DNA from: Dehalococcoidia bacterium
Lineage (GTDB): Bacteria > Chloroflexota > Dehalococcoidia > Lucifugimonadales > JADFKI01
Direction of reading: 5' to 3'
DNA: 64,000 bases
NCBI GenBank assembly: GCA_965222145.1
Contig: CBDCTG010000002.1
Location: forward strand, 445,646 to 509,645
The notes beneath the pieces are model-generated. The model was not told where the DNA came from. It ran no database searches and saw only the letters and a list, made by a program, of their open reading frames with translations. Shown here piece after piece: positions 3,094-46,735 of this stretch (its first letter is position 1; each line of letters opens with the position of its first letter). Both the position numbers and the translations under genes were made by a program.

Positions 3094-3239
3094 TCTCCTA
3101 GGGATATATGACTTGCAGGAGAGGGAATTTACAGAACTTCGTCCTGTGCATTCAAAGTGCATTAGTACATTGTACACTTGTCAGCACAGTGTGTGGCGGG
3201 CGCCGCGGTTAATCGACTGACTGAAACCACTCAGTTCAG

Positions 3240-4655
3240 CTATCGCCGAGGCATGCTCATGTAGGGATACAGCTCCGGCGGTATGCCTTGCACTTCCTCC
3301 GTGATTTCGGCGGCTACGGACAGCGACCCCGTGCCAAGCACCAAGTCTTTCTCGCTTGCCATTTCAAGCGCCCTTCGCGCCGCCTCGCCCACATTCTCGG
3401 ATGTGAACACCACCTTCATTCCTAGTTCGCCTGCCACCTGCGTCACTGTCGCGCCCGAAGCCGATCGTGGATGCCTCGAATGTGTGGCAAGCACTTCCGG
3501 CGAAAGCGGCAACAACGCGCGCAGCATGCCTGTCGCGCTGTGACCGCTGAGCGCGCCGAATATCAGAATGAGCCGCTCATACGAGAAATGCTCCCGCAGC
3601 GCCTCAACAAGCCGTTCCATCGAGTAGGGATTGTGCGCGCCATCCACGACAAGGAGCTTGCCACCCTTGTCGGGCGTTGCGAGCACCTGCAAGCGCGCTG
3701 GCCAATGCACATCGCGGACGCCTCGCCTGATGCTGTCATCGTCCAGCTCAACGCCTCGTTTCCTGAGTGTCTCAGCGATGGCGACAGCGGTTGCGGCGTT
3801 CTCCATCTGGTAGTCACCAAGCAGCGGCGTCTCCAGTTCGTATGCGCTTTCCGCGCTCGTGAGCGTGAAGACTTGCCCGCACATGTCGAAGCGCCGCTTC
3901 TGCCACGAAGAGCGCTCTGCCACGGATAGCAGGGGCGCACCGCGCTGTTGTGCGACATCAGCTATTACCGCCATCGCCTCGTCGGTCTGTGGCGCGACGA
4001 TTACCGGCACGCCTTCCTTGATGATGCCGGCCTTCTCAAAGGCAATCTTAGCAACTGTGTCGCCGAGGGTCGCTGTGTGGTCGAGACTGATGGAGGTAAT
4101 GGCGCACACACGCGGCTTCACGATGTTCGTGGAGTCGAGCCGCCCACCTAGCCCGACCTCCATGACCTGGAAGTCGGCGCCAATATCGCGGAAGTGGACG
4201 AACGCCATCGCGGTCATCGCTTCAAAGGTGGTTACGCCGCCGTAGCCTCCCGAACTGCCTATCCGCTCCACGGTTGGCCAGATGCGCTCAACGACGGCGG
4301 CAAACTGCTGCTGGCTGATTGGCTGTCCGTTAACGCGGATGCGCTCTGTTGCGCTGTGCAGGTGCGGTGATGTGTAAAGCCCGACCTCGTAGCCCTGCGC
4401 CGTCAGGATCGAGGCAATCATCGCGGAGGTACTGCCCTTGCCCTTTGTGCCGGCCACATGCACGGTTGGCACGGCGAGGTGGGCGCAATCGAGTTGCTCC
4501 ATCAGCAATGTCATGCGTTCCAGGTGAAACGCAGCATGGCCCGGGCTGTGCGTAGAGCGCTCGAAATCCGCAAGCCCCATTACGCGCTGAAGCGCGCCGT
4601 CATAACTCAGTTGTACGCCGGACTGCATCACTCGGCACTCTTGCTTTTGGCTCAT
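3240..4655 (-). CDS. folC: Bifunctional folylpolyglutamate synthase / dihydrofolate synthase (Mur ligase family)
   Basis: GTKGKGST P-loop and FolC-like layout over the full length. Start is uncertain (4727, 4655 or 4628); the N-terminal 24 aa of the ORF look non-homologous. Confidence 0.85.
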   Translation of the reverse strand: MSQKQECRVMQSGVQLSYDGALQRVMGLADFERSTHSPGHAAFHLERMTLLMEQLDCAHLAVPTVHVAGTKGKGSTSAMIASILTAQGYEVGLYTSPHLHSATERIRVNGQPISQQQFAAVVERIWPTVERIGSSGGYGGVTTFEAMTAMAFVHFRDIGADFQVMEVGLGGRLDSTNIVKPRVCAITSISLDHTATLGDTVAKIAFEKAGIIKEGVPVIVAPQTDEAMAVIADVAQQRGAPLLSVAERSSWQKRRFDMCGQVFTLTSAESAYELETPLLGDYQMENAATAVAIAETLRKRGVELDDDSIRRGVRDVHWPARLQVLATPDKGGKLLVVDGAHNPYSMERLVEALREHFSYERLILIFGALSGHSATGMLRALLPLSPEVLATHSRHPRSASGATVTQVAGELGMKVVFTSENVGEAARRALEMASEKDLVLGTGSLSVAAEITEEVQGIPPELYPYMSMPRR

Positions 4656-4791
4656 CCGCCGGATTAGCGCAATAACGCAGGATGGACAGGATACGAGTTG
4701 ACTTCTCGTAGTTCCTGTCCATCCCATGTTAAACCTTCGCGGTCAGGCTGTCAGCCCCAAAAGTGTCTCCTAGAGCGTGCCAGACTATCTC

Positions 4792-6852
4792 TTAGAGTGT
4801 GAATGAAGGCACTGTCGGACGCTTCCTGCCATAGACTGCGGTGCCATTGGTCTTGCCTGTGCTGCCATTGGAGCCGTTCGCGCTGCCGTTTACCGGGCGG
4901 CGCGGCGCGATTCCGTTGTTGAATCCGTCGTGCGGAAGCAGACTGTTCACACGCTGGAACATGGACCCGGCGCTTTCGATTGACTCGTCACTGATCTCCT
5001 GCCGCAGCCGTGCGTGGTTTTCCAGCAGCCACGCCGCGGGCCGGTACGAATCGAAGTGTCCGCCCGCAATCTTATCCATCTCGAAATGTCTCTCAAGTCG
5101 TTGCACGATGCGCGGGTCCTTCGCCGAGATAGCCTTCATGGACACAGGCTCTCGCAATTCCATCCCATACGACTCGTTAACCAGCTTCAGGTAGAAAGAC
5201 GGATCGAGGATATCCTCGATGTCTGCGGTGCGGATTTTCTGCACCTCCACCCACTTCACCGGAGTATTGCGCTGGATGACGCTATTCTGGTTGATCAACT
5301 CCATCTTCGCCTTGTTCTTCGGGGTGACATCCATCATCACGGCGACGCTGACATAACTCTCGCCGAGCAGCGATACGAACATTGGCAGATTGTCGGAGTT
5401 GCCCACCGGAATGACGACCCAACGGGGGTCGAGGCGCTGGAAGCCCTTGCTGGCGCAAATCTCACCCAGTATCTGCAGGTATATCAGGTCCGACGCCGAG
5501 TTCACCATGAGGCAATGCGGCGCGAGGAAAAGCATGTGCGCCAGGTCATGCCCGAGCGCTACCTGCAGCGGGAAGATCGTATCCTGGTCATTGCTCAGGG
5601 TGTCGGAGCTGATTACCGTGCCCCTATCGTCCACGTCCTGCACCGTGCGTATGCGATCGAGATGGTTCAGGTTAATCATGAACGGCGAGTGCGTGGTGTA
5701 GATGACCTGATGCTTGGGCGCGAGCCGCTCGTCGATGAATCGCAGGAAGTCGTGCTGTGCCAGAGCATGCAGGTTCAAGCCCGGCTCGTCCAGCAGCAAC
5801 ACAAGGTCGCAATCCTCCTGCTCTTCGATGCTGGAGAAGTATGTCAGGAACGAGAAGAACCAGACGAAGCCCTTCGATCGGTCGTCGAAAGGCACCGAAA
5901 CACGGTGCCGGTTGTTCCAGATGCGGACATGCAGGATTGTACCTTCGTTAAGTGGGGGCACATCGTTAGGGTCGGCGGGCGACAGGTCGAACTCAACGCG
6001 GAGCTCCGTATTCTGCGCCCAGTACTCGAACATCTCGTCGGAGATGCTGATGGACGCCGATTCAAGCTCAGCCTTCATGTATTCATAGTTCGTCTGATGC
6101 TGCAGGTCCTCAAGGTCGGCGCCCACCAGCGATATCAACGACATAAAGGTGCGGTCCGACTCATCGAACTCATCACCCGCCTGCACGCGCCTGCTCATGT
6201 CCTGCATGGAGATTCTCCCGCGCATGGTGCTGTACTCGTCAAAGTACACGAACTTCGGCATCATCGCGAACAGAACTTCTTCGACTACTTCCCTTGCGGA
6301 CTTCTCACCGAATCGCTCGTACATCCGCGTGATGAGCCTGCCAACCGCAACCGGCTTTACATCCAGCGCCTCCAACAGGCTGAGCATTTCCTTCACGCTG
6401 CCGGCGCTGCCTGCATGGCTGGTGATTTCGGGCGGCAACTCAGCGCTGCTCAGCAAATACTGGACGATGGCGCTCTCGTCCATCTCAAAATCCCACATAA
6501 GTTCGTTCTTGTAGTTCTTAGAGACCGTAATCTCCTCCGAAAGCAATACCCCGTCCCCAATGTGCTCCGCCAGCAGTTCAAACTCATCCTCTGACAGCGT
6601 CATTATCGCTGTGACGGCGGTGGCGGGATCGGATGGATGGCGCCTCCGATACCTGACATAGCCCTTGCGAGGGAAGTCCTTGAGTTCGAACTCCTGGCCG
6701 CCGTCAACGGGGTTGAGCCGCTTCAGAGCGCCGAGAAATGCCGTCTTGCCCGACTCGTTCTTGCCGACCATCGAGGTGACGGCATCTATATCGACCCAGC
6801 CGGAATCGTCAATGGATTTGAAGTCGGTTACCCGAGCGCGAACAAGTTTCAT
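4792..6852 (-). CDS. OLD-family-like ABC/AAA ATPase with a C-terminal TOPRIM-like region (possible defence gene)
   Basis: Walker A GKNESGKT. Signature/Walker B region LLLDEPGLNLH. D-loop/H-loop region YTTHSPFMIN. The C-terminal block CLMVNSASDLIYL ... VVIPVGNSDNL ... VAVMMDV has TOPRIM spacing. Confidence 0.55.
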   Translation of the reverse strand: MKLVRARVTDFKSIDDSGWVDIDAVTSMVGKNESGKTAFLGALKRLNPVDGGQEFELKDFPRKGYVRYRRRHPSDPATAVTAIMTLSEDEFELLAEHIGDGVLLSEEITVSKNYKNELMWDFEMDESAIVQYLLSSAELPPEITSHAGSAGSVKEMLSLLEALDVKPVAVGRLITRMYERFGEKSAREVVEEVLFAMMPKFVYFDEYSTMRGRISMQDMSRRVQAGDEFDESDRTFMSLISLVGADLEDLQHQTNYEYMKAELESASISISDEMFEYWAQNTELRVEFDLSPADPNDVPPLNEGTILHVRIWNNRHRVSVPFDDRSKGFVWFFSFLTYFSSIEEQEDCDLVLLLDEPGLNLHALAQHDFLRFIDERLAPKHQVIYTTHSPFMINLNHLDRIRTVQDVDDRGTVISSDTLSNDQDTIFPLQVALGHDLAHMLFLAPHCLMVNSASDLIYLQILGEICASKGFQRLDPRWVVIPVGNSDNLPMFVSLLGESYVSVAVMMDVTPKNKAKMELINQNSVIQRNTPVKWVEVQKIRTADIEDILDPSFYLKLVNESYGMELREPVSMKAISAKDPRIVQRLERHFEMDKIAGGHFDSYRPAAWLLENHARLRQEISDESIESAGSMFQRVNSLLPHDGFNNGIAPRRPVNGSANGSNGSTGKTNGTAVYGRKRPTVPSFTL

Positions 6853-12209: not shown

Positions 12210-13068
12210 GAGCCTGTTCACGATCTTCTTAGAATTAGCGCTGTGAAGGCAAGCACCACCATTTGCAGACTGGTATTGAGCTTTCTTTCGCAGTTCTTCC
12301 AGAGCCGGCGGCACTTTTGCAGCCAGGCAAAAGACCGCTCTACCACCCATCGCTTCGGAAGAACCACGAAGGTGTGAAGTTCGTTGCGCTTCACCACTTC
12401 CACCGAGGCTCCTAACAGACTTTGCACCGCAGTGGCAAAGGGCTTCCCTGTATAACCCCCATCGACAAGTACCTTTTGCACCTGCCTGAGGTCGGCTCCT
12501 CGTTGGTCGAACATCGCCAAAGCCCCGGCACGGTCGGTGACATTGGCGGTGGTCACGTGAATTGCATGCGGCAACCCCTGGGTGTCCACTGCGATGTGTC
12601 GCTTGATTCCCGAGACCTTCTTGCCGGCGTCATAGCCCTTGTTCTCGGCGCTGTCAGTGTTCTTAACGCTCTGAGAGTCCACGATGCAGAAGGTCGTCCG
12701 CTCTGTCCGTCCATTGCTTTGTCGGGCCTCGCCAACTGATTTTTTTTAAGACTTGCTCCAGAATGGACTCATTAGCCGCCTCGGGTCGCTCGCTCCACTG
12801 CCGGAAATACTTGTAGCAAGTGCGCCAATTGGGGAAGTCTGCGGGCAGCATTCGCCACTGGCATCCGCTTTTAAGAAGATACAATACCCCGCAGAAAACA
12901 TCATACAAGTCCACGGTGCGGGGCTTGGTCCTGCGGCGGGCCGACTCCAACAAGGGGAGAATCCGGGCAAATTGCTCTTGGCTGATGTCGCTGGGATAAG
13001 AATGAGACATGATTACCCTCCTGATAATAGTCTCAACCTATTATATTCCAGAGATCGTAGACAGGTTC
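12210..13068 (-). mobile_element. IS5-family insertion sequence (about 859 bp)
   Basis: 16-bp imperfect terminal inverted repeats: GAGCCTGTTCACGATC (12210-12225) and the reverse complement of 13053-13068 (GAACCTGTCTACGATC). Flanked by TTA at 12207-12209 and 13069-13071 (TTAG context). Confidence 0.85.
12218..13010 (-). CDS. IS5-family DDE transposase, split at an A8 run
   Basis: orfA is MSHSYPSDISQEQFARILPLLE ... CQWRMLP. The DDE part is ... SVGEARQSNGRTERTTFCIVDSQSVKNTDSAENKGYDAGKK ... VDGGYTG ... RWVVERSFAW. The frames join at the T8/A8 run at 12740-12747, and an A7 run would give one 263-aa ORF. Confidence 0.85.
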
Positions 13069-13097: not shown

Positions 13098-13167
13098 GAC
13101 ATCTAGCAGGCCGTCCCGTAAAGGTGAGATTCAGGCGAGCGTTGTTCAAAGAGGGGTTGATATAGAT

Positions 13168-13650
13168 ATGTCGAAGCTTCAGCAGGGAGACAGGCTCCCA
13201 AAGCTCACTTTCAACCTCATTAGCGGCAAAACGCTGAGCCTACCCGAGGAGATGCCATCGCGCTACCTTGCTGTGCTGTTCTATCGAGGGCACTGGTGAC
13301 CCTACTGCGTTCGGCAGTTGGCCGAGTGGCAGGAGAACAGCGAGGAACTGGAATCGCTGGGATGCAGCGTGGTCGCGGCAAGCGTTGACACGCTTGAACA
13401 CGCTCAGAAGATGCAGAAGGATTCCGGAGCGCAGTTCCCGATAGCCTACGGGGTTACTCAGGCGGATACCGACCCGCTGGGCTCGTGGTGGTCGAATGAA
13501 CGCGGCGGATTCGTGCAGCCCACGGAGTTGCTGCTGGGACGCGGCGGCACGGTGCTTGGTTCGCTCTACGCATCAGGGCCAGTAGGCCGCATGAGCGCCG
13601 ACGAGGCGCTGTACGCAATACGCAACCGTGAACGGCGACGGCTGGGTTAA
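13168..13650 (+). CDS. Peroxiredoxin-like / AhpC-TSA (redoxin) family protein with in-frame TGA in the redox motif (candidate selenoprotein)
   Basis: ATG 13168 (GAGGGG RBS) reads MSKLQQGDRLPKLTFNLISGKTLSLPEEMPSRYLAVLFYRGHW-TGA(13297-13299)-PYCVRQLAEWQ ... and stays in frame with the 13318-13650 ORF. Cys homologues carry FYRGxWCPxC at this position. Confidence 0.6.
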
Positions 13651-13699
13651 TCTGCCCTTTGGAACTTTCGCTTACATGGGCTAACAAGGTTCTAGACCA

Positions 13700-14329
13700 A
13701 TGACTATATCAACACCGCAAATCTCATTCTTTGGGCATTTGGATAAGTCGGATGCCGTATTGCTCGGTCTGCTGGCAATGCTCGAGTCGGGTAAAGAGAT
13801 ATGCGCCGCCAGAATGGTCAATCTAATTTACCTATTGGACGAGTTCAGCTATCAGCACGACGGAGTTACGCTTACCGGGTTCGACTATATCCGGAGCGAC
13901 GACGGACCGAATGTAGCCAACGATGAGGTGGATAAAGGGCTTGCCTCGTTGGTTCGGAAGGGACTCGTTCATTGCGCGCAGAAGTCAGCCTCGCCCGGCA
14001 GCTACAAGATTGATGGACAGGTCAACCTTGCCGAGATTCCGTTGAGTGCGGATGACTGGGCACTTATCCATTCCGTAATCCGCGAATACGGGGGCCTGAG
14101 CCACGCGGATATGGTTAAGGCGGCACGGCGAACCATGCCAATGAAGAACAGCGTGCGCTATGGCAAACTCCGGTTTCAGCCCAACCCTAAAATCGAGACT
14201 TTCAAGCAATCTGCTCGAAAAGATGCCGACTTCATGGAAAAATGCATGACTGCGCTTGCCGACAGCTTGGAAGGAGTTGCCATCGAAGAATTGAGAGGCG
14301 CAGTCGTTGCCGAACAGACTGACCCTTAG
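13700..14329 (+). CDS. Panacea/SocA-like (DUF4065-like) putative antitoxin
   Basis: 209 aa. MVNLIYLLDEFSYQHDGVTLTGFDYIRSDDGPNV resembles the K-L-x-Y-x-x-D ... G-x-x-x-T-G ... Y ... G-P core of the domain. Family call is from memory and is tentative. Confidence 0.4.
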   Translation: MTISTPQISFFGHLDKSDAVLLGLLAMLESGKEICAARMVNLIYLLDEFSYQHDGVTLTGFDYIRSDDGPNVANDEVDKGLASLVRKGLVHCAQKSASPGSYKIDGQVNLAEIPLSADDWALIHSVIREYGGLSHADMVKAARRTMPMKNSVRYGKLRFQPNPKIETFKQSARKDADFMEKCMTALADSLEGVAIEELRGAVVAEQTDP

Positions 14330-14570
14330 CGAAGGCGCTCGCCACTTCTATCAGACGCTCGATGCACACAGATTACCTTCGTTAGACGAAGCCCTCGATT
14401 ACATTAGAGACGCTCCATTCTCCCACGGCGGATTGATTCGGCGCGAGTCTCGCCCGCCGGTGACGATGTACTTCTATGACGACGGAGTTTGGCGAATAGG
14501 CTATGTTCTTTCGTTCTACGCGGACTCCGCCATATTCCATATCCATGTCTTGGCAATCTCCCCTATCTGA
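14307..14570 (+). CDS. Small RelE/ParE-like putative toxin
   Basis: 87 aa with a TTG start that overlaps the upstream gene by 23 nt. The C-terminal pattern WRIGYVLSFYADSAIFHIHVLAISP resembles the RelE/ParE beta-sheet core. Confidence 0.4.
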   Translation: MPNRLTLSEGARHFYQTLDAHRLPSLDEALDYIRDAPFSHGGLIRRESRPPVTMYFYDDGVWRIGYVLSFYADSAIFHIHVLAISPI

Positions 14571-14691
14571 TAGGAACGGCTTCAACGCGGCGTGTAGGCG
14601 TCGGGCGGCGTGATGCCGCCATGTCCCAGGTAGGAGAATCGGCTGCCCCCCTAAAACCACACTCCCCAGTCCGACGTCCCCCCAATTCCCC

Positions 14692-14720
14692 TTGACAACC
14701 CAAACGCCCGTGCGTATCAT
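14692..14720 (+). promoter_or_regulatory. Strong sigma70-type promoter of repeat-protein paralogue A
   Basis: TTGACA (14692-14697), 17-nt spacer, TATCAT (14715-14720). The block CCCTTGACAACYCAAAC is shared with the promoter at 27431. Confidence 0.6.
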
Positions 14721-14822
14721 ATATTAAATTACCAGAACATACAATCCTATCCATACTGCACATCCTGTTAAGTCTATGAAACACTGACCGGCTGACCACT
14801 GAAAACTCTGAACTGAAAAACC

Positions 14823-15911
14823 ATGTGCATTCAAGACAACATACAATCCAAAATCGCACAACTCACACAAAACGGCGATACCATAGCCGTCTTCCTTGCA
14901 GACACCCTGCAAGGCTCATCCGACCATGCTATAAAAATCTGCCACCGAATGGACGCAGCCAAATTGCTCACCAAATACGGCTTCCCTCAACAAGCCCACA
15001 ACAATGTCATACCCTTCACTCCAAAAGAGACTGATGAATCAGAGAACGAATCGTCCATGTCAGCCCCCGCTCCCACCCTCAGAGACATCGTCGCCTACCC
15101 CGTCGCCCGCTACATCCGCAACCGTACGGATGACGGCGAAAACCTAGTCCACGCCCTCTGCCAAATCATGAACGGCGGCGAATTCCGTCAAGACCCATTC
15201 ACCGGTGAACCTCGGCAAACGGTCAAGCCGCGCGAGCGCCTCGCAGCCGCGAAAGAACTCTTGCGCCGCGCTTTCGGCGAACCCGCCCCATCGCGCCGCA
15301 ACTCCACAGCCTACAACTCTGCCGCAGACATCGACGAGCGCGACCCACTAAACACGCTCATCGCCAAACTCGTCCGCGACAAGACCAACGACGGCATCGC
15401 CGCCGCCGAACTCCTGATACGCATCGCCGAAAATGACGACACAGAAGGCGACTGGCTGCCCGCCCACCGCCTTTCGGCAGCGAAAGAACTCCTGCACCGC
15501 GCCTACGACCTCAACTACGACGCGGTAACTTGGGAACACATAGACGCCTACAACAACAACGCCTATCCGCTCGACCTGAACGAAGAAGCCGAGCGAACGC
15601 GCCATAAAGAGCGAATATCCGCCCTCATCAAAGAGTACGACGAAGCCCGCGCAGCCGACGACGAAGACGCGATGGCAGCCGCTGAAAAGGAGTACGCCAA
15701 CTACATAAAGTACGGCGACGAATCAGCCCCCGCCGAGACGTCAGAACACTTGGAGTACGGCCCAAACGACCCTGATCCGACCGTCGACTACTACTACCCG
15801 CCCCTGAGCAAGGAAGAACAGGCGAAGTTCGACGAGGATATGCGCCGCAACTCCGCCGCCAACATCCACACCCCCAAACTCACCATCCCCCTAAAAATCC
15901 GCAGCCCCTAA
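14823..15911 (+). CDS. Unrecognised protein family, three tandem helical repeats (paralogue A)
   Basis: 362 aa, a paralogue of 27549-29093. Repeats end in HRMDAAKLLTKYGF, ERLAAAKELLRRAFGE and HRLSAAKELLHRAYDLNYD. Conserved C-terminus YGPNDPDPTVDYYYPPLSKEEQAKFDED. No Shine-Dalgarno sequence. Confidence 0.7.
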   Translation: MCIQDNIQSKIAQLTQNGDTIAVFLADTLQGSSDHAIKICHRMDAAKLLTKYGFPQQAHNNVIPFTPKETDESENESSMSAPAPTLRDIVAYPVARYIRNRTDDGENLVHALCQIMNGGEFRQDPFTGEPRQTVKPRERLAAAKELLRRAFGEPAPSRRNSTAYNSAADIDERDPLNTLIAKLVRDKTNDGIAAAELLIRIAENDDTEGDWLPAHRLSAAKELLHRAYDLNYDAVTWEHIDAYNNNAYPLDLNEEAERTRHKERISALIKEYDEARAADDEDAMAAAEKEYANYIKYGDESAPAETSEHLEYGPNDPDPTVDYYYPPLSKEEQAKFDEDMRRNSAANIHTPKLTIPLKIRSP

Positions 15912-15942
15912 ATGACACAGAAACATAGAACGCCAATACGCC

Positions 15943-16374
15943 CTACGATCGCACGAGCCTCAGCACCATCCTCACCAGCATGAAGACGATCAGGGCAAGG
16001 CCGCCCCACAGCAGCAGTTCCGCCCACCATAGATTAAGGTTAAGCTGGGCGATTGCCGATGCCCAGCTCAGGATGAATCCAATCCAGACGACGAAGTCGA
16101 GGGCGAACGACACCTTCTTGCCTATTAGAAGCGCCACGTTCCGCAGCACTGGAATCACGCTCGCCACAGCCAGGAAGAACGACAGCGCGAAGAATCCGGC
16201 GATTACCAGGAAGATTGCATATCCCACGGCTTCGGGCAGTTCAAGGATAAAGAAGAATGTGACAGCCCCTTCCGAAATCTGCCATTGCTGCGTCAGCATC
16301 AGCGCGCCCACAAAGGCGACTAAGGCGTTGCTGAACAGCCACTCTTCCTTGTATTCCGCGCTCGTCATCGTCAT
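15943..16374 (-). CDS. Hypothetical integral membrane protein (about 4 TM helices)
   Basis: 143 aa dominated by hydrophobic segments. No family recognised. Confidence 0.55.
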   Translation of the reverse strand: MTMTSAEYKEEWLFSNALVAFVGALMLTQQWQISEGAVTFFFILELPEAVGYAIFLVIAGFFALSFFLAVASVIPVLRNVALLIGKKVSFALDFVVWIGFILSWASAIAQLNLNLWWAELLLWGGLALIVFMLVRMVLRLVRS

Positions 16375-16422
16375 CGCTTACCTGCCCATCGCCAATGGCC
16401 TGTCCATCCACGACGGACCACG

Positions 16423-17121
16423 CTACACGAGCAAGCCCACCAATTCATCGGGGTGGCTGAGCATTGGGTAGTGGCCAGCTTCCATCTCGTGCCAGTCGGC
16501 GTTGAGCGTCTCGGCAGTACGGCGCTGGTGCGCTACCGGCGGATTCTGGCTGAGGGTGCAGCGAATAACGCGAGTGTTCGGCCACTCCTGCGCCCAGAAA
16601 GCGTCAAGTTCGCCCGGTGCATCGGAGGCCTCGACAGGATGCGGAGTGGCGCGGTCAACCGCCCAAGCGCGCAATTCCGGCTCAAGGTCGGCGAACATGC
16701 GGTTCTCCATCTCTTCGCGCGTGGGCCCTCTAGTCAGTCCGGTCGTGGGAATCGGAGGGGCATTCGGGCCGCGCTGCACGATATTGCTGACGCGCTCGCC
16801 GGGCTGTGGTGCAAGGGCGTCCACGAACGCAATCCTGCTTATGCGCTCACAAGCAAGCTCCGCAACCTTGCATATCACCAGACCGCCGGTGCTTGTGCCG
16901 ACGAGCACGATGTCCTTCAGGTCTTCGTAGAACAGAAAGTCCGCGACCTCTTGCCCCTGCGCCGCGATGGTGATGCCCGGTCGTATGAGCTTGCTGCGCT
17001 CGCCACAGCCGTCCAGCGAGGGCGCGTACACCGTATGCCCCTGACTCCGCAGGACCTCAGCCGTGGGTTTCCAAATCCAACCGCCTTGGAAAGAGCCGTG
17101 AACCAGTACGAAAGTTGCCAT
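16423..17121 (-). CDS. Alpha/beta hydrolase (esterase-like)
   Basis: FVLVHGSFQGGWIWK N-terminus and a GTSTGG nucleophile elbow. Confidence 0.8.
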   Translation of the reverse strand: MATFVLVHGSFQGGWIWKPTAEVLRSQGHTVYAPSLDGCGERSKLIRPGITIAAQGQEVADFLFYEDLKDIVLVGTSTGGLVICKVAELACERISRIAFVDALAPQPGERVSNIVQRGPNAPPIPTTGLTRGPTREEMENRMFADLEPELRAWAVDRATPHPVEASDAPGELDAFWAQEWPNTRVIRCTLSQNPPVAHQRRTAETLNADWHEMEAGHYPMLSHPDELVGLLV

Positions 17122-24727: not shown

Positions 24728-24747
24728 CCAACCGAACGATACCTTAT

Positions 24748-26465
24748 CCCGAATCCACCGAAGAGTCATGGTATCTCTGCCGGAGCGTGGGTGAAGGACG
24801 CGGCAAGGTGGCGGTGCGGGTATGATGCCGACGCTGGAGCGTTCTGAAGGTCCCCGGTCGTGATGTTGAACGCCAATGGAGGCCCACAGTGGCGATTGTG
24901 GGTGAAGTTGACGAATCGGTGAGCAGCAGGGGATACTCACGGTCCGGTCCGGCGCGAGTCTGGGGATGAGATGGGTTATGGAGTGTATGGTGGGCAGTCG
25001 TCGCCGCTGCCGTCAGCTGTCAGCTCGGTAACGGAATGGTTCGCAGTCTGGCCAGAGCGCGGCCGAACTGTGTTTCCCAGGGCCAGCGCTGGGGAAGATG
25101 CAGGGTGAGACGGCGTGCCGAGCGTGTAAGCCGTCCGGCGAGGGAGAAGAATCGTCTGCGCAAGGTCTTGGTGGTGGAGGCTCGTTCTTCCAGTCCGATG
25201 CGGGAGGTCCAGCGAGCCAGATTGTGAGCCATCACCTGCACGGCCAACCAGGCGGCGTTGGCTGCGAAGCGCCCTGAGGGCAGATGGTTCAGTCCTACGC
25301 CGTACTTCAGGTCGCGGATGGCGTTCTCCACCTCGGCGTGGCGGCGATGGTCGGCCTCCAGTTGGAGGGTGTCGCCCTCTCGGTCCGTGATGAAACCGTG
25401 ATAGCTGTAGTTGGTGAAGAGCGCCAGTTGAGAGCCGGGCGTGGGCTTCACTCTGCGGACGATGAGTCGCACTGGTGCGGCGTCGGGCTTGCTCTCGAAG
25501 GGAGTGTAAATGGTCTCGGCCACATCGGCTGTGCCGTCCATCCAGTAGGGTATGGGTGTCCAGTCCGTCTCTGGTATGGCCTCGATGAGATTGCGCAGTC
25601 GGGGGTGCTGTCGGACGGTGATGGAGAAGCGGACATCCATCTTGCGACAGACGGCAACGATGGTGTGGGCATAGAAGCCGCTGTCGGCCCGCACCGTGAG
25701 CGCTCCCGTGGCTCCGGCGTAGCGCACTCGCGCCACCGTCTCCCGCAGGAAGTTGGCTGCGCCCCGGGCGGTGTTGGCTCGGCCCTTGCGCAGTCGTGCC
25801 ATCAGCACGTCGCCGGTTCCTGAGGCAACGGCCAGCAGCGGATGATAGCCCCGCTGGCCGGTGTAGTTGTGATGGCGCGCTCCCTCCTTTGCCAGTCCAT
25901 AGGTCTCGCAGACCGTCGAGTCTATGTCGATCGTCAGAGGCGAGTCCTCGGGGCCTGCCCCGGCGTCCCAGGCACGCGCCAGAAACTCTCGGCTCACCCG
26001 GTCCAACTGTCGCACATGTCCCCAGCGGAAACTGCGTAGGAATGTCCCCAGCGTGGATGGAGCCTTGACCACACAACCCAGTACCGAGGAGGTCCTGCCC
26101 GCCCGCAACACGTCGGCATCGTCAATGCAGTCGCCACCGACCAGAGCCGACGCCACCAGGGTCAGTATCTTGTCCCCGGTGTTGGCCCGCCCCGGGGCGT
26201 CGCCCAGGTCAACGTGGTTGTCGACGAGTTGGCTCAGACCCAGACGCCCGGCCAGGGTGACCGGCAGGATCAGCCCGGCATTGGCTACCAGGCGGGGATC
26301 GTCGAAGGCGATTTGGATGCGGTCAGGGTGGTTACGTGGTAGCATCTGTTGGGTGCTCCTTTTCTGTGACAGGTTTTGTGTTGTAAAACCATTATCTCAG
26401 ATTCAGAGGTGCACCCTTTTGCTTCTTCAGGAGGCCTCTCACACGCCCCCCTCGGTGGATTGGGG
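24748..26465 (-). mobile_element. IS1380-family insertion sequence, copy 1 (1718 bp)
   Basis: Termini are CCCGAATCCACCGAAG ... and ... CCTCGGTGGATTGGGG (imperfect inverted repeats). Flanked by CTTAT (24743-24747) and CTTAG (26466-26470). Every ORF in every frame matches copy 2. Confidence 0.9.
25020..26345 (-). CDS. IS1380-family transposase
   Basis: 441 aa. IDIDSTVCETYGLAKEGARHHNYTGQRGYHPLLA, HRRHAEVENAIRDLKYGVGLNHLPSGRFAANAAWLAVQVMAHNLARW. Confidence 0.9.
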   Translation of the reverse strand: MLPRNHPDRIQIAFDDPRLVANAGLILPVTLAGRLGLSQLVDNHVDLGDAPGRANTGDKILTLVASALVGGDCIDDADVLRAGRTSSVLGCVVKAPSTLGTFLRSFRWGHVRQLDRVSREFLARAWDAGAGPEDSPLTIDIDSTVCETYGLAKEGARHHNYTGQRGYHPLLAVASGTGDVLMARLRKGRANTARGAANFLRETVARVRYAGATGALTVRADSGFYAHTIVAVCRKMDVRFSITVRQHPRLRNLIEAIPETDWTPIPYWMDGTADVAETIYTPFESKPDAAPVRLIVRRVKPTPGSQLALFTNYSYHGFITDREGDTLQLEADHRRHAEVENAIRDLKYGVGLNHLPSGRFAANAAWLAVQVMAHNLARWTSRIGLEERASTTKTLRRRFFSLAGRLTRSARRLTLHLPQRWPWETQFGRALARLRTIPLPS

Positions 26466-26477
26466 CTTAGGAATTAC

Positions 26478-27548: not shown

Positions 27549-29093
27549 ATGTGCAATCCAGCAGACATACAACACAAGATTCACAGCTTCACCAAAGACG
27601 GTGAACACATCGCGCGCTTCCTCACGGAAACAATGCGGGGCAAGACCCCCGGCGTCAAAGTCTGCCACAGAATGGAAGCCGCAAAACACCTTATCCGCTA
27701 CGGCTTCCCCGACGCCGACTGCGTAACCACCTCTACCCGTCTTTCCCGCGCAGGCGGGAACCCAGAGGAGCAGGGCGGCGACGAAACCCCCGTTCAAAGT
27801 CCCCTCTCCCCTGGGAAGAGGGCTAGGGTGAGGGGAGAAGAGATTGCAGCCCCCGTAACCCACCTCGACATCATCAACTACCAGATAGCCCACCTCATAC
27901 GCCACGAAACAGCCGAAGGTCACACCCTCGTAGAGTTTCTCATTCACATCATGACCGGCAAAGACAGACCCTTCACTCCCAAGAAGTTCCGCATCAAGCC
28001 CGCAGACCGCATGGCAGCAGCAAGAGAACTCCTGCGTCGCGGCTTCGGAGACCTAGGCTCGCGCCGCAGGAAGTCAGACAGCACCGACGAAGAAAACGCC
28101 TACGACACCCTGCACACGGACCTAGCCAGACGAATGCGCGAGTACAGCGAGCGCGGCACCGACACCGTCCGCTTCCTGCTCGAAGTGATGTCAGACCCCG
28201 ACCCTGACCTAGAGTTCACCATCCATCACCGCTTGTCAGCGGCACAGGAGCTTCTGCGCCGAGGCTGGGACACCAACTACGACAACATCAAGCCCAAGCA
28301 CCTCCAAGCCTACTGGCAGGACAAGGAATCCCCGCGTCTCTCCATAGGCCAGAAAAAGACCCAGGCAGGCCTCTCAACCACCATCGACGACTACGACCAG
28401 TACGACGATGTAGATTATGAAGCCATCGCCCAAGAGATCAGAGAAGAAGAAGATCGAGACGACAACTCAAAGCCTCTTCGTTTCCAAGCGACCGTCCCAT
28501 CTTCTCGCCCTTCCTCCGAAAGCAGGAATCCAGAAGACCGCCAAGCCGCCAGTCCTTCCACAAAGCTCCCTCTCGCCCAGGGACTGAGCAGGCGTGAAGG
28601 CACTAATAATTCCCTTCCCCCTCGACGGGGGAAGGTTAGGATGGGGGTGAAGACTCCCACACAAAGCCCGCTCCCGAACAAGGCAACCACCGTCAATGAA
28701 CACGACAAAGCCATCATCAAAGAGTTCAAGGAAGCCATGGACAAAGGCGACGAGCGGGCCGCCCTCCGCGCACAGGCAAAGTACCGCCGCATAGACGTAA
28801 AACCAGAAAAGAACATCTACGACTACGGCCCCAACGACCCCGACCCAACAATCGACTACTACTTCGAACCCCTAAACCCCGAAGAGCAGGCAAAGTTCGA
28901 CAAAGAAGACCGGCGCGAATACGGTCTGACCGAAGACGAGCCAGCCACCAATGGCAGCGCGAACCAACCCTCGCCGAACGGCACGGCCGATTCGCTCGCG
29001 CCAATAAAGCAAGCCGCCGCGCTCCACGGCACACCCATCCGCCCCAACCCACTCGCCGCCAAGCTCCAAAAGCCAACCATCCGCAGCCCCTAA
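27549..29093 (+). CDS. Unrecognised protein family, three tandem helical repeats (paralogue B, expanded by in-frame palindromic elements)
   Basis: 514 aa. Repeats end in HRMEAAKHLIRYGF, DRMAAARELLRRGFGD and HRLSAAQELLRRGWDTNYD. C-terminus YGPNDPDPTIDYYFEPLNPEEQAKFDKED. No Shine-Dalgarno sequence. Confidence 0.7.
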   Translation: MCNPADIQHKIHSFTKDGEHIARFLTETMRGKTPGVKVCHRMEAAKHLIRYGFPDADCVTTSTRLSRAGGNPEEQGGDETPVQSPLSPGKRARVRGEEIAAPVTHLDIINYQIAHLIRHETAEGHTLVEFLIHIMTGKDRPFTPKKFRIKPADRMAAARELLRRGFGDLGSRRRKSDSTDEENAYDTLHTDLARRMREYSERGTDTVRFLLEVMSDPDPDLEFTIHHRLSAAQELLRRGWDTNYDNIKPKHLQAYWQDKESPRLSIGQKKTQAGLSTTIDDYDQYDDVDYEAIAQEIREEEDRDDNSKPLRFQATVPSSRPSSESRNPEDRQAASPSTKLPLAQGLSRREGTNNSLPPRRGKVRMGVKTPTQSPLPNKATTVNEHDKAIIKEFKEAMDKGDERAALRAQAKYRRIDVKPEKNIYDYGPNDPDPTIDYYFEPLNPEEQAKFDKEDRREYGLTEDEPATNGSANQPSPNGTADSLAPIKQAAALHGTPIRPNPLAAKLQKPTIRSP

Positions 29094-29160
29094 CCTCAAA
29101 CTCCCCTCTCCCTCAACTGACAGGGATATGTAAAGTTTGAACAAAGAAGGCTTGCCTATT

Positions 29161-29381
29161 CTGTCACTCTGAATTCAGCGCACGCTTACCTTGTCATTCT
29201 GAATTCAGCGCCCCTTTCCCTGTCATTTCGAACGCAGCGCACGCTTACTCTGTCATTCTGAATTCAGAGCACGCTTACACTGTCATTCTGAACGCAGCGC
29301 ACGCTTGCTCTGTCATTCTGAACGCAGCGCCCCCTTCCCCTGTCATTCTGAACGCAGCGCAGCGGAGTGAAGAATCTAAAA
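29161..29381 (+). repeat. Tandem array of 7 units, period 29-30 bp (consensus CTGTCATTCTGAACGCAGCGCACGCTTACT)
   Basis: Units start at 29161, 29191, 29220, 29250, 29280, 29310 and 29340. They are contiguous with no spacers. The last unit is the full 42-nt element also found at 8268-8309. Confidence 0.9.
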
Positions 29382-29570
29382 TATCTGCATGGCCGGACTG
29401 GGCTCGGTGTGAAAACCCTGCCTATCCTATTAGCTTCGTCCAACAAACCGACCCACCGACCTACCGACATACTGAAAAACTAACCCTCCCACTACACATT
29501 CCGCGCTCCCCGTGTTAGCCTTGTGCCGCGTGAACACCACGCGCACAAACTCACACGGAGGACGCTCGTT

Positions 29571-30347
29571 ATGGACTTGGGAATACAAGGCAAAGTGGCG
29601 CTCGTAACCGGCGGAAGCCGCGGACTAGGCAAAGTCGCCGCGCTCTCACTCGCACGCGAAGGCGTGAATGTCGCCATCTGCGGTCGCACTCAATCAACCC
29701 TCGACGGCACCGTCGCCGAGCTTGAAGCGCTCGGAGTCCGCGCCCAGGGCGTAGTCGCCGACGTCACCGATGTCGACGCCATGCCCCCTCTAGCCCAAGC
29801 GGTCGTTGACGGACTCGGTCCCATCGACATCCTCGTCAACAACGCCGGCGGCTCCCGCGCCCGCCAGGACATCGCCGACCTCCCCCTCGAAGACTTCAAG
29901 GCAGCCTTCGACCTCAACCTCTTCGGCAGCTTTCAGCTCATGCGCGCAGTCATTCCCCCCATGCGCCAGCAGCAGTGGGGCCGCATCATCAACATCGCCT
30001 CCATCTACGGCAGGGAATACGGCGGCAACCTCTCCTACATGGCAGCAAAGTCCGCCCTCATCAGTGCCACCAAGCACGCCGCCATCAGCCTCGTAACCGA
30101 CGGCGTCCTCGTCAACAGCATCGCCCCCGGCTCCATCTCCCACCCCGAAGGCTCATGGGAACGCTTCCAGAGCGACAACCCCCCAGAAGTCGTCGCTGAC
30201 TTCATATCCCGCAACCTCCCCCTCGGCAGGTTCGGCTGGCCCGAGCCCGTCGGCGACCTCGTCGCCTTCCTCGCCTCCGAGCGCGCTGACCTCATCACCG
30301 GCTCCTGCATCGTCGTTGACGGCGGCCAAAGCTACTCCATGATTTAA
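29571..30347 (+). CDS. SDR-family oxidoreductase
   Basis: MDLGIQGKVALVTGGSRGLG and YMAAKSA motifs. GGAGG lies 9 nt upstream of the ATG at 29571. Confidence 0.88.
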   Translation: MDLGIQGKVALVTGGSRGLGKVAALSLAREGVNVAICGRTQSTLDGTVAELEALGVRAQGVVADVTDVDAMPPLAQAVVDGLGPIDILVNNAGGSRARQDIADLPLEDFKAAFDLNLFGSFQLMRAVIPPMRQQQWGRIINIASIYGREYGGNLSYMAAKSALISATKHAAISLVTDGVLVNSIAPGSISHPEGSWERFQSDNPPEVVADFISRNLPLGRFGWPEPVGDLVAFLASERADLITGSCIVVDGGQSYSMI

Positions 30348-30366
30348 GCCAAAAAGCAGGGACAAC

Positions 30367-31323
30367 CTATTTGGTTGCCCCTCTCAAATACTTGGCAAGC
30401 TGCCCCACGACTACTACATGAGCTGGCGCAGCCGCGGGTCGAACCGGTCTCTCGCCCAGGAAGTTCAGCGACATAACGACCATGAAGATGCCGACGCCTG
30501 GGAATACCGTCTGCCACCAAGCTGTGGATACATACTGTCGCCCTTCGGAAATCAGCACCCCCCAGGCAGGCGTGGGCGGCGGAATGCCCGCACCCAGGAA
30601 GCTGAGCGTCGCCTCCGCCAGAATCAGGTCGCCCACATTCAGCGTCGCCACCACTATGGCAGAGTTAATCACGCCGGGCAGAACATGCCTGAGAATGATT
30701 CGCGTGGGTGACGCCCCCGCTATCTTCGCCAGCGAAACAAAGTCCATCTCCTTGAGCTGCAAGGTCTGCGCGCGCACAATCCTCACAAACCCCACCCACG
30801 AGAGCACGGCGAGCAGCACGAACACGACGCCAAGACTCTGCCCGAATATCAGCACTGCGAGAAGAGCAACCATAAGGAACGGCAGCGCAAGCCATATATC
30901 CACGATGCGGGTAACGATTTCGTCGAATATGCCGCCGATGTAGCCGCTTATCATACCCACGCTTGTGCCTACTAACAGACCGACGACCAGAGAAATGGTG
31001 GCGACTATCAGCGAAATACGCGAGCCGGCGATGATGCGACTGAGCACATCTCGCCCAACATGGTCGGTGCCCAATGGATTCGTCCAGCTTCCGGCCTTGC
31101 ACTTTGCGCCCAGGCAGAGCTCGAATCCGACCGGCGGTATATGCCTGCTGCGGGCGTCGGACAGCACCGCATCGTGAGGCGCAATCTGCGGGCCGAATAC
31201 ACCCAATATAATAAGCACCACGATCACGGCAGCGGGTATCACTGGCCAGCGCCTGATGAAGCCCCAGACTGCGGCAAATTGCCTTATGACAGGCGGATGA
31301 GCCGTCGTCCCAACTAATTCCAT
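30367..31323 (-). CDS. ABC peptide/nickel-type transporter permease (DppC/OppC-like), probable 3'-terminal frameshift
   Basis: Typical permease body. After ... LNFLGE the conserved ending RDRFDPRLRQLM-stop (stop at 30414-30416) is in the +1 frame, while the ORF as sequenced reads on to 30367. Confidence 0.75.
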   Translation of the reverse strand: MELVGTTAHPPVIRQFAAVWGFIRRWPVIPAAVIVVLIILGVFGPQIAPHDAVLSDARSRHIPPVGFELCLGAKCKAGSWTNPLGTDHVGRDVLSRIIAGSRISLIVATISLVVGLLVGTSVGMISGYIGGIFDEIVTRIVDIWLALPFLMVALLAVLIFGQSLGVVFVLLAVLSWVGFVRIVRAQTLQLKEMDFVSLAKIAGASPTRIILRHVLPGVINSAIVVATLNVGDLILAEATLSFLGAGIPPPTPAWGVLISEGRQYVSTAWWQTVFPGVGIFMVVMSLNFLGERPVRPAAAPAHVVVVGQLAKYLRGATK

Positions 31324-31340
31324 TGTGTTCCTTGCACCTG

Positions 31341-32286
31341 CTAAGAGTACCTAATGCGCGGGTCTATCATCGCATAGAGAATATCCGCTACCACCGCGAA
31401 GAAGAGGTAGAACATTATGAAGGTGAAGACCGTCCCTTGCAGCAGCGGGAAGTCGTTGTCATACACGGCCCGGTTCAAAGCGATCCATCCGATTCCGGGC
31501 CACGAGAATACAGTCTCCACTACCAGCGCGCCATTCAAGTAGCCCGCCATCAGCAGCAGGGCTGAGGTCAGCGGCGGTATTAGGGCGTTCTTCAGGGCAT
31601 GCTTCCAGATGACCTGAAACCTGCCAAGCCCTTTGGCACGCGCAAGCTTTACGAACTCCGAATCCAACACCTCGAGCATCGCCGATCGAGTGAGCCGCAT
31701 GATCCCGGCGGCAGCGGGCCATCCAAGCACGATGGAGGGTAGTATGTAATACTTGACGTGAAACCCCGAATCATCGCCACGTGTGCCGGCAGGAAGCCAC
31801 TGGAGCAGAACGGCGAATAAGAAAATCGCCATTATGCCCGTCCAGAACTGCGGCAGCGCCTGCCCGAATAGCGCAAACCCCCGGCTGAGATAGTCCCATA
31901 AAGTTCCCCTGCTGGTGGCAGCTGCGACCCCCAGTGGCACGCCTACCAGGATAGCGAAAACCCATCCTCCGACGGCCAACTGGATGGTAGCGCCCATCTT
32001 GCTGAATATGATGTCGCGCACTTCCAGTTCCTGGTGTATGGATGTGCCGAAGTCTCCGAGCAGCAACTTGCCCACCCAAAGCAAGTATTGGACGGGAATA
32101 GGCTTGTTGAAGCCCATTTTGTCCCCCAGCGCCTCCCACTGCTCTTCCGACATTCCGTATCCGGTATCTGGGACGAAGAGTTCGCGAGGGTCGTGCGCCA
32201 GCCGCGTCATACTGAATATGACGATTGTCGCTCCAAAAAAGCGATATGACTATGAATAGCGCGCGTCTTAACAGAAATCGCTGCAT
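31341..32286 (-). pseudogene. ABC peptide/nickel-type transporter permease (DppB/OppB-like), frameshifted at a homopolymer
   Basis: N-terminus MQRFLLRRALFIVISLF (from 32286) is in a different frame from ... ATIVIFSMTRLAHDPRELFV (31341-32210 ORF). They join if one base is removed from the A6/T6 run at 32235-32240. Confidence 0.75.
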
Positions 32287-44665: not shown

Positions 44666-44738
44666 TTGCAGATAGTCATGAAGTCATTCGTCCCCATGAT
44701 GCCCTCAATAACAGACCCTTTACCCAGCTCTGCTTTAG

Positions 44739-46456
44739 CCCCAATCCACCGAGGGGGGCGTGTGAGAGGCCTCCTGAAGAAGCAAAAGGGTGCACCTCTG
44801 AATCTGAGATAATGGTTTTACAACACAAAACCTGTCACAGAAAAGGAGCACCCAACAGATGCTACCACGTAACCACCCTGACCGCATCCAAATCGCCTTC
44901 GACGATCCCCGCCTGGTAGCCAATGCCGGGCTGATCCTGCCGGTCACCCTGGCCGGGCGTCTGGGTCTGAGCCAACTCGTCGACAACCACGTTGACCTGG
45001 GCGACGCCCCGGGGCGGGCCAACACCGGGGACAAGATACTGACCCTGGTGGCGTCGGCTCTGGTCGGTGGCGACTGCATTGACGATGCCGACGTGTTGCG
45101 GGCGGGCAGGACCTCCTCGGTACTGGGTTGTGTGGTCAAGGCTCCATCCACGCTGGGGACATTCCTACGCAGTTTCCGCTGGGGACATGTGCGACAGTTG
45201 GACCGGGTGAGCCGAGAGTTTCTGGCGCGTGCCTGGGACGCCGGGGCAGGCCCCGAGGACTCGCCTCTGACGATCGACATAGACTCGACGGTCTGCGAGA
45301 CCTATGGACTGGCAAAGGAGGGAGCGCGCCATCACAACTACACCGGCCAGCGGGGCTATCATCCGCTGCTGGCCGTTGCCTCAGGAACCGGCGACGTGCT
45401 GATGGCACGACTGCGCAAGGGCCGAGCCAACACCGCCCGGGGCGCAGCCAACTTCCTGCGGGAGACGGTGGCGCGAGTGCGCTACGCCGGAGCCACGGGA
45501 GCGCTCACGGTGCGGGCCGACAGCGGCTTCTATGCCCACACCATCGTTGCCGTCTGTCGCAAGATGGATGTCCGCTTCTCCATCACCGTCCGACAGCACC
45601 CCCGACTGCGCAATCTCATCGAGGCCATACCAGAGACGGACTGGACACCCATACCCTACTGGATGGACGGCACAGCCGATGTGGCCGAGACCATTTACAC
45701 TCCCTTCGAGAGCAAGCCCGACGCCGCACCAGTGCGACTCATCGTCCGCAGAGTGAAGCCCACGCCCGGCTCTCAACTGGCGCTCTTCACCAACTACAGC
45801 TATCACGGTTTCATCACGGACCGAGAGGGCGACACCCTCCAACTGGAGGCCGACCATCGCCGCCACGCCGAGGTGGAGAACGCCATCCGCGACCTGAAGT
45901 ACGGCGTAGGACTGAACCATCTGCCCTCAGGGCGCTTCGCAGCCAACGCCGCCTGGTTGGCCGTGCAGGTGATGGCTCACAATCTGGCTCGCTGGACCTC
46001 CCGCATCGGACTGGAAGAACGAGCCTCCACCACCAAGACCTTGCGCAGACGATTCTTCTCCCTCGCCGGACGGCTTACACGCTCGGCACGCCGTCTCACC
46101 CTGCATCTTCCCCAGCGCTGGCCCTGGGAAACACAGTTCGGCCGCGCTCTGGCCAGACTGCGAACCATTCCGTTACCGAGCTGACAGCTGACGGCAGCGG
46201 CGACGACTGCCCACCATACACTCCATAACCCATCTCATCCCCAGACTCGCGCCGGACCGGACCGTGAGTATCCCCTGCTGCTCACCGATTCGTCAACTTC
46301 ACCCACAATCGCCACTGTGGGCCTCCATTGGCGTTCAACATCACGACCGGGGACCTTCAGAACGCTCCAGCGTCGGCATCATACCCGCACCGCCACCTTG
46401 CCGCGTCCTTCACCCACGCTCCGGCAGAGATACCATGACTCTTCGGTGGATTCGGG
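44739..46456 (+). mobile_element. IS1380-family insertion sequence, copy 2 (1718 bp)
   Basis: Same termini as copy 1 in the opposite orientation. Perfect 5-bp direct repeat TTTAG at 44734-44738 and 46457-46461. Confidence 0.9.
44859..46184 (+). CDS. IS1380-family transposase
   Basis: 441-aa translation identical to 25020-26345. Confidence 0.9.
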   Translation: MLPRNHPDRIQIAFDDPRLVANAGLILPVTLAGRLGLSQLVDNHVDLGDAPGRANTGDKILTLVASALVGGDCIDDADVLRAGRTSSVLGCVVKAPSTLGTFLRSFRWGHVRQLDRVSREFLARAWDAGAGPEDSPLTIDIDSTVCETYGLAKEGARHHNYTGQRGYHPLLAVASGTGDVLMARLRKGRANTARGAANFLRETVARVRYAGATGALTVRADSGFYAHTIVAVCRKMDVRFSITVRQHPRLRNLIEAIPETDWTPIPYWMDGTADVAETIYTPFESKPDAAPVRLIVRRVKPTPGSQLALFTNYSYHGFITDREGDTLQLEADHRRHAEVENAIRDLKYGVGLNHLPSGRFAANAAWLAVQVMAHNLARWTSRIGLEERASTTKTLRRRFFSLAGRLTRSARRLTLHLPQRWPWETQFGRALARLRTIPLPS

Positions 46457-46735
46457 TTTAGTCAGTCATGATCGTAATTTTGGCCATCAACGCTCAAATT
46501 GCAGCACATTTTAACTCAATCAATCGCTTTAAGTAAGCGTGCGACTTTGAGCTTCAAGGATGGCAACGTGCAATCATCGTTCTACAAGAGCATGTGTCAG
46601 AGTAACGCAGATAGAAATTGAAGCCGTTGGCGAGGAACTAACACACATGGAATCAGAGGTGATCTGAATCAGCCATGCCGCAGTTGTGAACTGTCCTCTC
46701 ATAATTCTTCCATGAGACGAAAAGGAGAAATACCG

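Follow-up and report, generated by a model that had tools for sequence, protein, structure and literature searches.

Prx-like selenoproteins with a UxxC motif form one of the described families of bacterial selenoproteins, ascribed to Kryukov and Gladyshev (2004) in PMC13188914. The Sargasso Sea data contributed 22 selenocysteine (Sec) sequences of the Prx-like family (Zhang et al. 2005, PMC1088965), and the GOS data contributed 225 under the description 'Prx-like 1, pfam00578, UxxC' (Zhang & Gladyshev 2008, PMC2398784). Reading UGA as Sec depends on a hairpin in the mRNA, for which the published bacterial SECIS (bSECIS) model expects an apical loop of 3-9 nt with a G in its first two positions, an upper stem of 4-16 bp, a UGA at a distance of 16-37 nt and an MFE no higher than -7.5 kcal/mol (PMC13188914). 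Dehalococcoidia are already represented among selenoprotein-rich organisms, two of their MAGs being listed among the ten most selenoprotein-rich bacteria with 49 and 46 genes (BSepDB paper, PMC13326102). The main text of PMC5029168 has no mention of Chloroflexi or Dehalococcoidia, and PMC5424206 holds nothing relevant on UGA-to-Cys recoding in Dehalococcoidia.

Here we describe a locus of this kind in a stretch of 64,000 nucleotides (the window) from a Dehalococcoidia bacterium (contig CBDCTG010000002.1, assembly GCA_965222145.1). We hold with high confidence that an in-frame TGA in the window is a genuine Sec codon in a thioredoxin-fold Prx-like protein with a downstream SECIS. The features concerned are the following.

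13150-13156, plus strand: Shine-Dalgarno-like run AGAGGGG, read directly from the sequence, of putative function
13168-13650, plus strand: complete coding sequence of a predicted Prx-like (AhpC/TSA-family, thioredoxin-fold) selenoprotein, from translation, Pfam, tblastn and codon conservation
13297-13299, plus strand: predicted Sec codon (UGA), position 1 of the UPYC redox motif, from TGA in orthologues and TGT in Cys forms
13302-13335, plus strand: predicted bacterial SECIS hairpin (hairpin A), from the MFE fold, covariation and its absence from Cys forms
13306-13308, plus strand: TGC codon for the partner Cys of UxxC, invariant as Cys and aligned to the peroxidatic Cys of peroxiredoxins
13316-13320, plus strand: apical loop AGUUG of the predicted SECIS, from loop conservation and fit to the published model

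The Shine-Dalgarno-like run lies 11 nt upstream of the ATG at 13168-13170. The frame reads MSKLQQGDRLPKLTFNLISGKTLSLPEEMPSRYLAVLFYRGHW, ending in AVLFYRGHW, meets the TGA and continues as PYCVRQLAEWQENSEELESLG (PYCVRQLAEWQ...) for 116 sense codons up to a TAA at 13648-13650. The gene thus comprises 160 codons including the stop, or 159 residues, and the UGA is codon 44. An earlier note on this DNA had placed the start with its ribosome-binding site, the TGA and the continuing frame exactly here. Mechanical ORF calling breaks the gene into two pieces, a 43-aa ORF and a 110-aa ORF with a TTG start. With Cys written for U, residues 7-129 of the joined protein give a hit to Pfam AhpC-TSA (PF00578, 58.3 bits against a cut-off of 26, E=9.7e-16), which makes the protein a member of pfam00578; Redoxin (PF08534, E=4e-11) is also matched. 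Both halves are a single gene because the AhpC-TSA domain runs across the TGA; tblastn matches in related genomes span residues 1-160.

Judged by its pfam00578 match and its UxxC motif against the published description, the gene is assigned to the known 'Prx-like, UxxC' selenoprotein family. Its active site reads W-U-P-Y-C, with U opposite the Thr of peroxiredoxins and the first Cys of CPGC in 2l5o. It has in common with the family the Sec/Cys pairing, a SECIS within the coding region right after the UGA and an occurrence in marine or symbiont bacteria. No substantive difference from the family was found, the comparison with its published representatives (such as WP_010940744.1) being one by description. 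The Dehalococcoidia/SAR202 subgroup of the family appears uniformly Sec (80/80 among the best 80 of 321 loci) and carries an invariant CGGC-AGUUR-GCCG core.

Matches to PDB sequences are weak (E about 4e-4 to 3e-3), the best being of TlpA/ResA type (2l5o, 3c71, 4nmu). In this type of CxxC oxidoreductase the CxxC aligns with UPYC, so that U stands at the N-terminal nucleophilic Cys; in the weak match to the TlpA-like thioredoxin 2l5o it is CPGC that lies opposite UPYC. The protein differs from ResA, with an NCBIfam score of 19.5 bits against a cut-off of 170. Typical peroxiredoxins (AhpC/BCP, PxxxTxxC) and Sec-containing peroxiredoxins (TxxU) share with it the fold, the Pfam family and the position of the peroxidatic Cys, but in the window protein Sec takes the place of the conserved Thr: in peroxiredoxin 6q5v, T-P-V-C lies opposite U-P-Y-C, U corresponding to the conserved Thr and the downstream Cys to the peroxidatic Cys. 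NCBIfam peroxidase equivalogs score 20-29 bits overall against cut-offs of 140-211 (BCP 29 against 140; NF006960 29 against 140 bits; NF009668 19.7 against 211 bits). With Sec at the Thr position and the peroxidase equivalogs below cut-off, the protein is not a canonical peroxiredoxin. The SelL-related redox protein model (NF040769) is likewise missed, with 29.3 bits against a cut-off of 120. The protein is most likely a selenol/thiol:disulfide oxidoreductase.

For comparison one genome per GTDB species was scanned; this gave 321 related stretches, and the analysis uses the best 80. All 80 loci are from MAGs assigned to Dehalococcoidia, SAR202 or Chloroflexota, which include many closed long-read chromosomes, and the encoded proteins are 58-95% identical to the window protein. 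Every one of them (80/80, best 80 of 321) has TGA at the aligned codon. The motif reads U-P-Y-C in 77 and UQYC, UGYC and USYC in one each. TGA is also kept in two metagenome contigs, at identities down to 45%. Together with the window gene the 80 loci form a set of 81 sequences, in whose codon alignment conserved residues are written with 4-6 synonymous codons on either side of the UGA; Arg columns, for example, use 5-6 codons, as do Leu columns. This synonymous variation at conserved residues on both sides speaks for purifying selection on a protein that extends past the UGA. The partner Cys is invariant, with its codon TGC in 68 and TGT in 13 of the 81 sequences.

A protein search returned homologues of two kinds: full-length proteins of 165-177 aa, and many C-terminal fragments of 90-127 aa that start just past the motif. 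The full-length homologues carry HW-C-PYC at the TGA column, with the exception of three entries with W (P0003, P0005, P0041) that are taken up below. DNA of the Cys form was available as two distinct sequences (L081/L082 and L083), and both have TGT at the aligned codon where the Sec forms have TGA. The gene thus shows the Sec/Cys pairing of bacterial selenoprotein genes, beside a conserved UGA with coding conservation on both flanks. The earlier note proposed a UxxC selenoprotein in which the TGA stands for the first Cys of WCPYC, and this is supported by the TGA in 80/80 loci and the Cys (HWCPYC, TGT) in homologues; its expectation that the two halves form one gene agrees with the Pfam domain that runs across the TGA.

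Past the UGA, hairpin A is the MFE structure of the segment, at -15.9 kcal/mol. Its upper stem pairs 13310-13315 with 13321-13326 (UUCGGC/GCCGAG, 6 bp), and its lower stem pairs 13305-13308 with 13329-13332 and 13302-13303 with 13334-13335. The loop AGUUG begins 16 nt past the UGA and has G at its second position, followed by U. Across the 81 sequences it is AGTTG in 62 and AGTTA in 19. The unpaired bases on the 3' side include an invariant U at 13327 (column 43 of alignment A3), which we take to be loosely reminiscent of the bulged U of the fdhF SECIS. With a 5-nt loop, 6 bp, the loop G, 16 nt and -15.9 kcal/mol, the hairpin has all properties of the published bSECIS model, so that the search for a SECIS in this region recommended in the earlier note did lead to a suitable element. 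As in the canonical SECIS of the E. coli fdhF type, it is a hairpin inside the ORF right after the UGA whose small loop has G, then U; its 6-bp upper stem, its distance of 16 nt and its MFE, which is lower than -7.5 kcal/mol, likewise agree with the Zhang and Gladyshev model as PMC13188914 summarises it. It differs from canonical bacterial SECIS elements in that its spacing is at the minimum of the range and that SelB binding is here a prediction.

Considered as a single sequence, the fold of the window gene only modestly beats shuffled sequences (z=-1.92; 10 of 200 shuffles equally good), and for this reason the case for a SECIS rests on comparison and not on thermodynamics. Three candidate hairpins were counted on the gap-free 81-sequence alignment A3. 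The core of 4 bp of hairpin A is invariant there, and it is found in the MFE fold of 72/81 orthologues. Next to the core, A3 pair 27-41 is G-C in 48, U-A in 26 and other or unpaired in 7 sequences. The covariation score observed at this pair was reached by none of 500 shuffles, the pair being linked to amino-acid changes and partly clade-structured. T-ending codons (GTT, GCT, AAT) accompany Glu-GAR in this covariation, and G-ending codons (GCG, TCG, CGG, GTG, ATG, ACG) accompany Ala-GCN. For one and the same amino acid, codon choice tracks the pairing partner in hairpin A: Val is written GTT where the partner is Glu-GAR and GTG where it is Ala-GCC, and Ala likewise is GCT opposite Glu and GCG opposite Ala.

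Synonymous sites are frozen in the hairpin, with CGG in 81/81, CAG in 81/81, TTR in 81/81 and GCC in 80/81 sequences. The Leu codon in the stem and loop is TTG or TTA and never CTN; elsewhere in the gene CTG is usual. Cys-form genes have CGC-CAT-CTC-GCT or CGG-CAC-CTG-ACC at this place, without hairpin A, and the most divergent TGA form (L087, 45% identity) retains CGG-CAG-TTG-GCC. We regard this freezing of synonymous sites as the strongest single evidence for hairpin A as the putative SECIS. In the 81 sequences, the constraint that an RNA element places on synonymous sites within a coding region can be seen very cleanly.

The earlier note had put forward two other hairpins as possible SECIS elements, at 13301-13321 (CCTACTGC/GTTCG/GCAGTTGG; hairpin 1) and at 13338-13359 (CAGCGA/GGAACTGGAA/TCGCTG; hairpin 2). 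Both exist at these positions, and neither is the leading candidate for the SECIS. Hairpin 2 is not conserved, only 40% of its cells in alignment A3 being paired. Hairpin 1, with the loop GUUCG, might be the SECIS itself or alternate with hairpin A. Its 5-bp core ACUGC/GCAGU can pair in 81/81 sequences, both C-to-U changes in it retaining a G-U pair; it reaches -9.3 kcal/mol in the window, and its 3' arm is missing in Cys forms. Against this, its loop starts 9 nt past the UGA, as compared to 16-37 nt in the published model, it has no informative compensatory change, a U-U mismatch is present in 81/81 sequences, and its scores are reached by shuffles. The codons for Tyr-Cys, already fixed by the active site, make up its 5' arm, and hairpin 1 leaves the frozen GCC codon unexplained. 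The upper stem of hairpin A is stabler than the hairpin 1 core in 78/81 sequences, and in the form with 45% identity (L087) hairpin 1 is degraded (TTC TGT) and hairpin A persists. We thus consider a role of hairpin 1, alone or in alternation, unlikely. The remark in the earlier note that neither of its hairpins has textbook spacing applies to hairpin 1 with its 9 nt; it does not extend to the best candidate, hairpin A, which stands at the canonical 16 nt.

Hairpins 1 and A are mutually exclusive, perfectly conserved and share CAGUU. It is conceivable, and in our estimate quite improbable, that they form a switch between Sec insertion and termination, or that the invariant CGGC-AGUUR-GCCG core is specific to this clade and suits an unusual SelB or tRNA-Sec.

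As regards the Sec machinery, no tRNA was found by ARAGORN in the 64-kb window, and none of the seven tRNAs that it found in the 80 loci is a tRNA-Sec. In tblastn searches with E. coli queries (from NC_000913.3), SelA, SelB and SelD had no match in the window or in 1.6 Mb around the orthologues (80 x 20 kb), from which we conclude that the Sec machinery is unlinked to the Prx-like gene. Rfam at gathering thresholds gave no match in the window. The known SECIS families of Rfam are eukaryotic, and this null result is therefore uninformative for a bacterial SECIS. Two of the orthologues lie on contigs of SAR202 genomes that have been described before, MPND01000005.1 of bin90 and MPNC01000001.1 of bin87. 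For each of these two bins SelA (COG1921) is tabulated with 3, SelB (COG3276) with 1 and SelD (COG0709) with 1 gene (Slaby et al. 2017, PMC5649159, Tables 2 and S4), so that all three occur in genomes with the orthologue; the other three SAR202 bins likewise have SelA, SelB and SelD (PMC5649159).

When the related loci were searched for a TGA with a SECIS-shaped hairpin behind it, two of them proved to contain a further selenoprotein gene, a tandem rhodanese sulfurtransferase (PF00581, E=3e-36), which precedes the Prx-like Sec gene by 7-9 kb on its upstream side.

L033, 648-1490: predicted rhodanese selenoprotein gene, TGA at 1362, from PF00581 and a SECIS-like hairpin
L058, 2513-3349: predicted rhodanese selenoprotein gene, TGA at 3221, from PF00581 and a SECIS-like hairpin

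Its TGA falls on the catalytic Cys (TVHSY-U-QGGIRSA) and is followed by 41 more codons. The SECIS-like hairpin is UCCGUUC-GGC-GAACGGA (-15 kcal/mol), with the GGC loop 17 nt past the UGA. Clustered TGA-interrupted redox-motif ORFs that the loci yielded were almost all off-frame or antisense artefacts.

The UGA might be decoded through SelB and a SECIS and nevertheless receive Cys. Mukai and co-workers reportedly described in 2016 Cys recoding by tRNA-Sec-like tRNAs in some bacteria. The sequence by itself does not distinguish which amino acid is delivered, and non-canonical tRNA-Sec structures have been reported in Chloroflexi (PMC5389517). Cys insertion is opposed by SelA and SelD, both Sec-specific, which are tabulated in the two orthologue carriers bin90 and bin87, and by the cataloguing of relatives as selenoprotein-rich. 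Sec is also favoured over Cys because UGA and SECIS are kept in 80/80 loci though TGT or TGC would be the cheaper way to Cys. We rate Cys insertion as very unlikely.

A pseudogene, or an assembly or sequencing error that turned TGC or TGT into TGA, would agree with the C-terminal fragments of 90-127 aa given by gene callers and with the IS element inserted just upstream; it has next to no probability in view of the same TGA in 80/80 independent genomes, the purifying selection on both halves and the conserved UGA-linked RNA element, and it is the same recurrence of TGA at one codon by which we regard sequencing error, pseudogene and two-gene readings as excluded. Genome-wide reassignment of TGA to Trp or Gly (code 4 or 25), which the W at the TGA column of P0003, P0005 and P0041 might suggest, is practically negligible: the DNA of P0005 and P0041 reads TGA at the W codon and, translated with code 11, mismatches the stored protein, so that this W is a product of the gene caller, homologues have a catalytic Cys and not Trp or Gly at the column, and TGA terminates 14 of the 42 long non-overlapping ORFs of the window, from which the standard bacterial code follows for the organism. 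That TGA is otherwise an ordinary stop here had been noticed before and holds in this count. Of 88 candidates for a TGA-interrupted ORF that a scan of the window produced, the Prx-like gene alone was convincing; the rest, judged by eye, were off-frame or overlapping ORFs.

Sec insertion at this UGA is thus the reading we follow. The data show a single gene, a UGA that is retained across orthologues and pairs with Cys in homologues, and a hairpin tied to this UGA that is conserved and covaries; SelB binding, selenium incorporation and the substrate of the window protein are predictions. The segment 13168-13650 of the plus strand would encode one 159-residue AhpC/TSA (Prx-like) redox protein with a U-P-Y-C active site. 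During translation, the mRNA past the UGA would fold into hairpin 13302-13335, and by analogy to characterised bacterial systems SelB with Sec-tRNA(Sec) would bind the AGUUG loop and deliver Sec instead of termination. As hairpin A lies within the coding region, it dictates the codons CGG-CAG-UUR-GCC and with them the peptide R-Q-L-A. The protein would then act as a thiol/selenol:disulfide oxidoreductase through a U-x-x-C couple that forms a selenenylsulfide, in the manner of CxxC redoxins.

In databases the family is mis-annotated (P0001-P0120; L086, L087), mostly as fragments that bear the name 'redoxin domain-containing protein' or simply 'hypothetical protein'. The full-length entries with Trp at the active site (P0003, P0005, P0041) stem from JGI and Logan, with TGA in the DNA of P0005 and P0041. 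Since automated annotation splits the gene, the redox proteome of SAR202 and Dehalococcoidia, including sponge symbionts, is systematically mis-described. The main value of the locus is practical, namely correction of annotation and a benchmark for SECIS detection, and the 81-sequence set can be used to train or benchmark predictors of bacterial SECIS elements and selenoproteins. Prx-like UxxC proteins rank among the most abundant marine selenoproteins, and nothing biologically unexpected is added to this. We consider the finding correct and ordinary because the family was described as early as 2004-2005 and is frequent in marine bacteria, and because the lineage was already catalogued as selenoprotein-rich.

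Regarding the surroundings of the gene, the window is collinear with L001 (OZ244863.1) and L002 at 93-98% nucleotide identity, save for an insertion of about 854 bp. The insertion, at 12212-13065, is an IS5-family element (NF033580) about 100 bp upstream of the ATG of the Sec gene. Its transposase is split into two overlapping ORFs on the minus strand, 12663-13010 and 12218-12682, that match profile positions 1-86 and 100-257, and this may reflect programmed frameshifting or decay of the copy. As the element is absent from the otherwise collinear L001 and L002, its insertion is recent, and it could affect the promoter or expression of the Sec gene in the window genome.

Further upstream, the Sec gene has a conserved neighbour in 19 loci, a PAC2-family gene (PF09754; 11123-12094, plus strand, in the window). 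In L083 a PAC2 gene (4501-5391) lies about 1 kb from the Cys-form redoxin, and the PAC2/redoxin neighbourhood may be a conserved association. Downstream, 13700-14329 on the plus strand encodes a protein of 209 aa with a SocA/Panacea antitoxin domain (PF13274, E=1.1e-6). Among the 80 loci this gene is present only in L002 and L003. L001 has other DNA in the interval 13646-14572, which is thus a small variable island beside the Sec gene. Nothing suggests an operon or a dedicated partner for the Sec gene.

Neither Pfam nor NCBIfam has a match for the ORFs 14823-15911 and 15980-16471. Composition deviates at 14001-16000 and 28001-32000, with a GC skew of about -0.20 and an AT skew of about +0.24, both near zero elsewhere. 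The window also harbours two copies of a DDE-transposase IS (24743-26467 and 44737-46461) of 1,725 nt each, which are 100% complementary, inverted and separated by 18,269 nt. The 441-aa ORF of this IS matches PF13701 (DDE_Tnp_1_4, E=1.2e-59), and the inverted pair could represent a composite transposon, an invertible segment or an assembly duplication.
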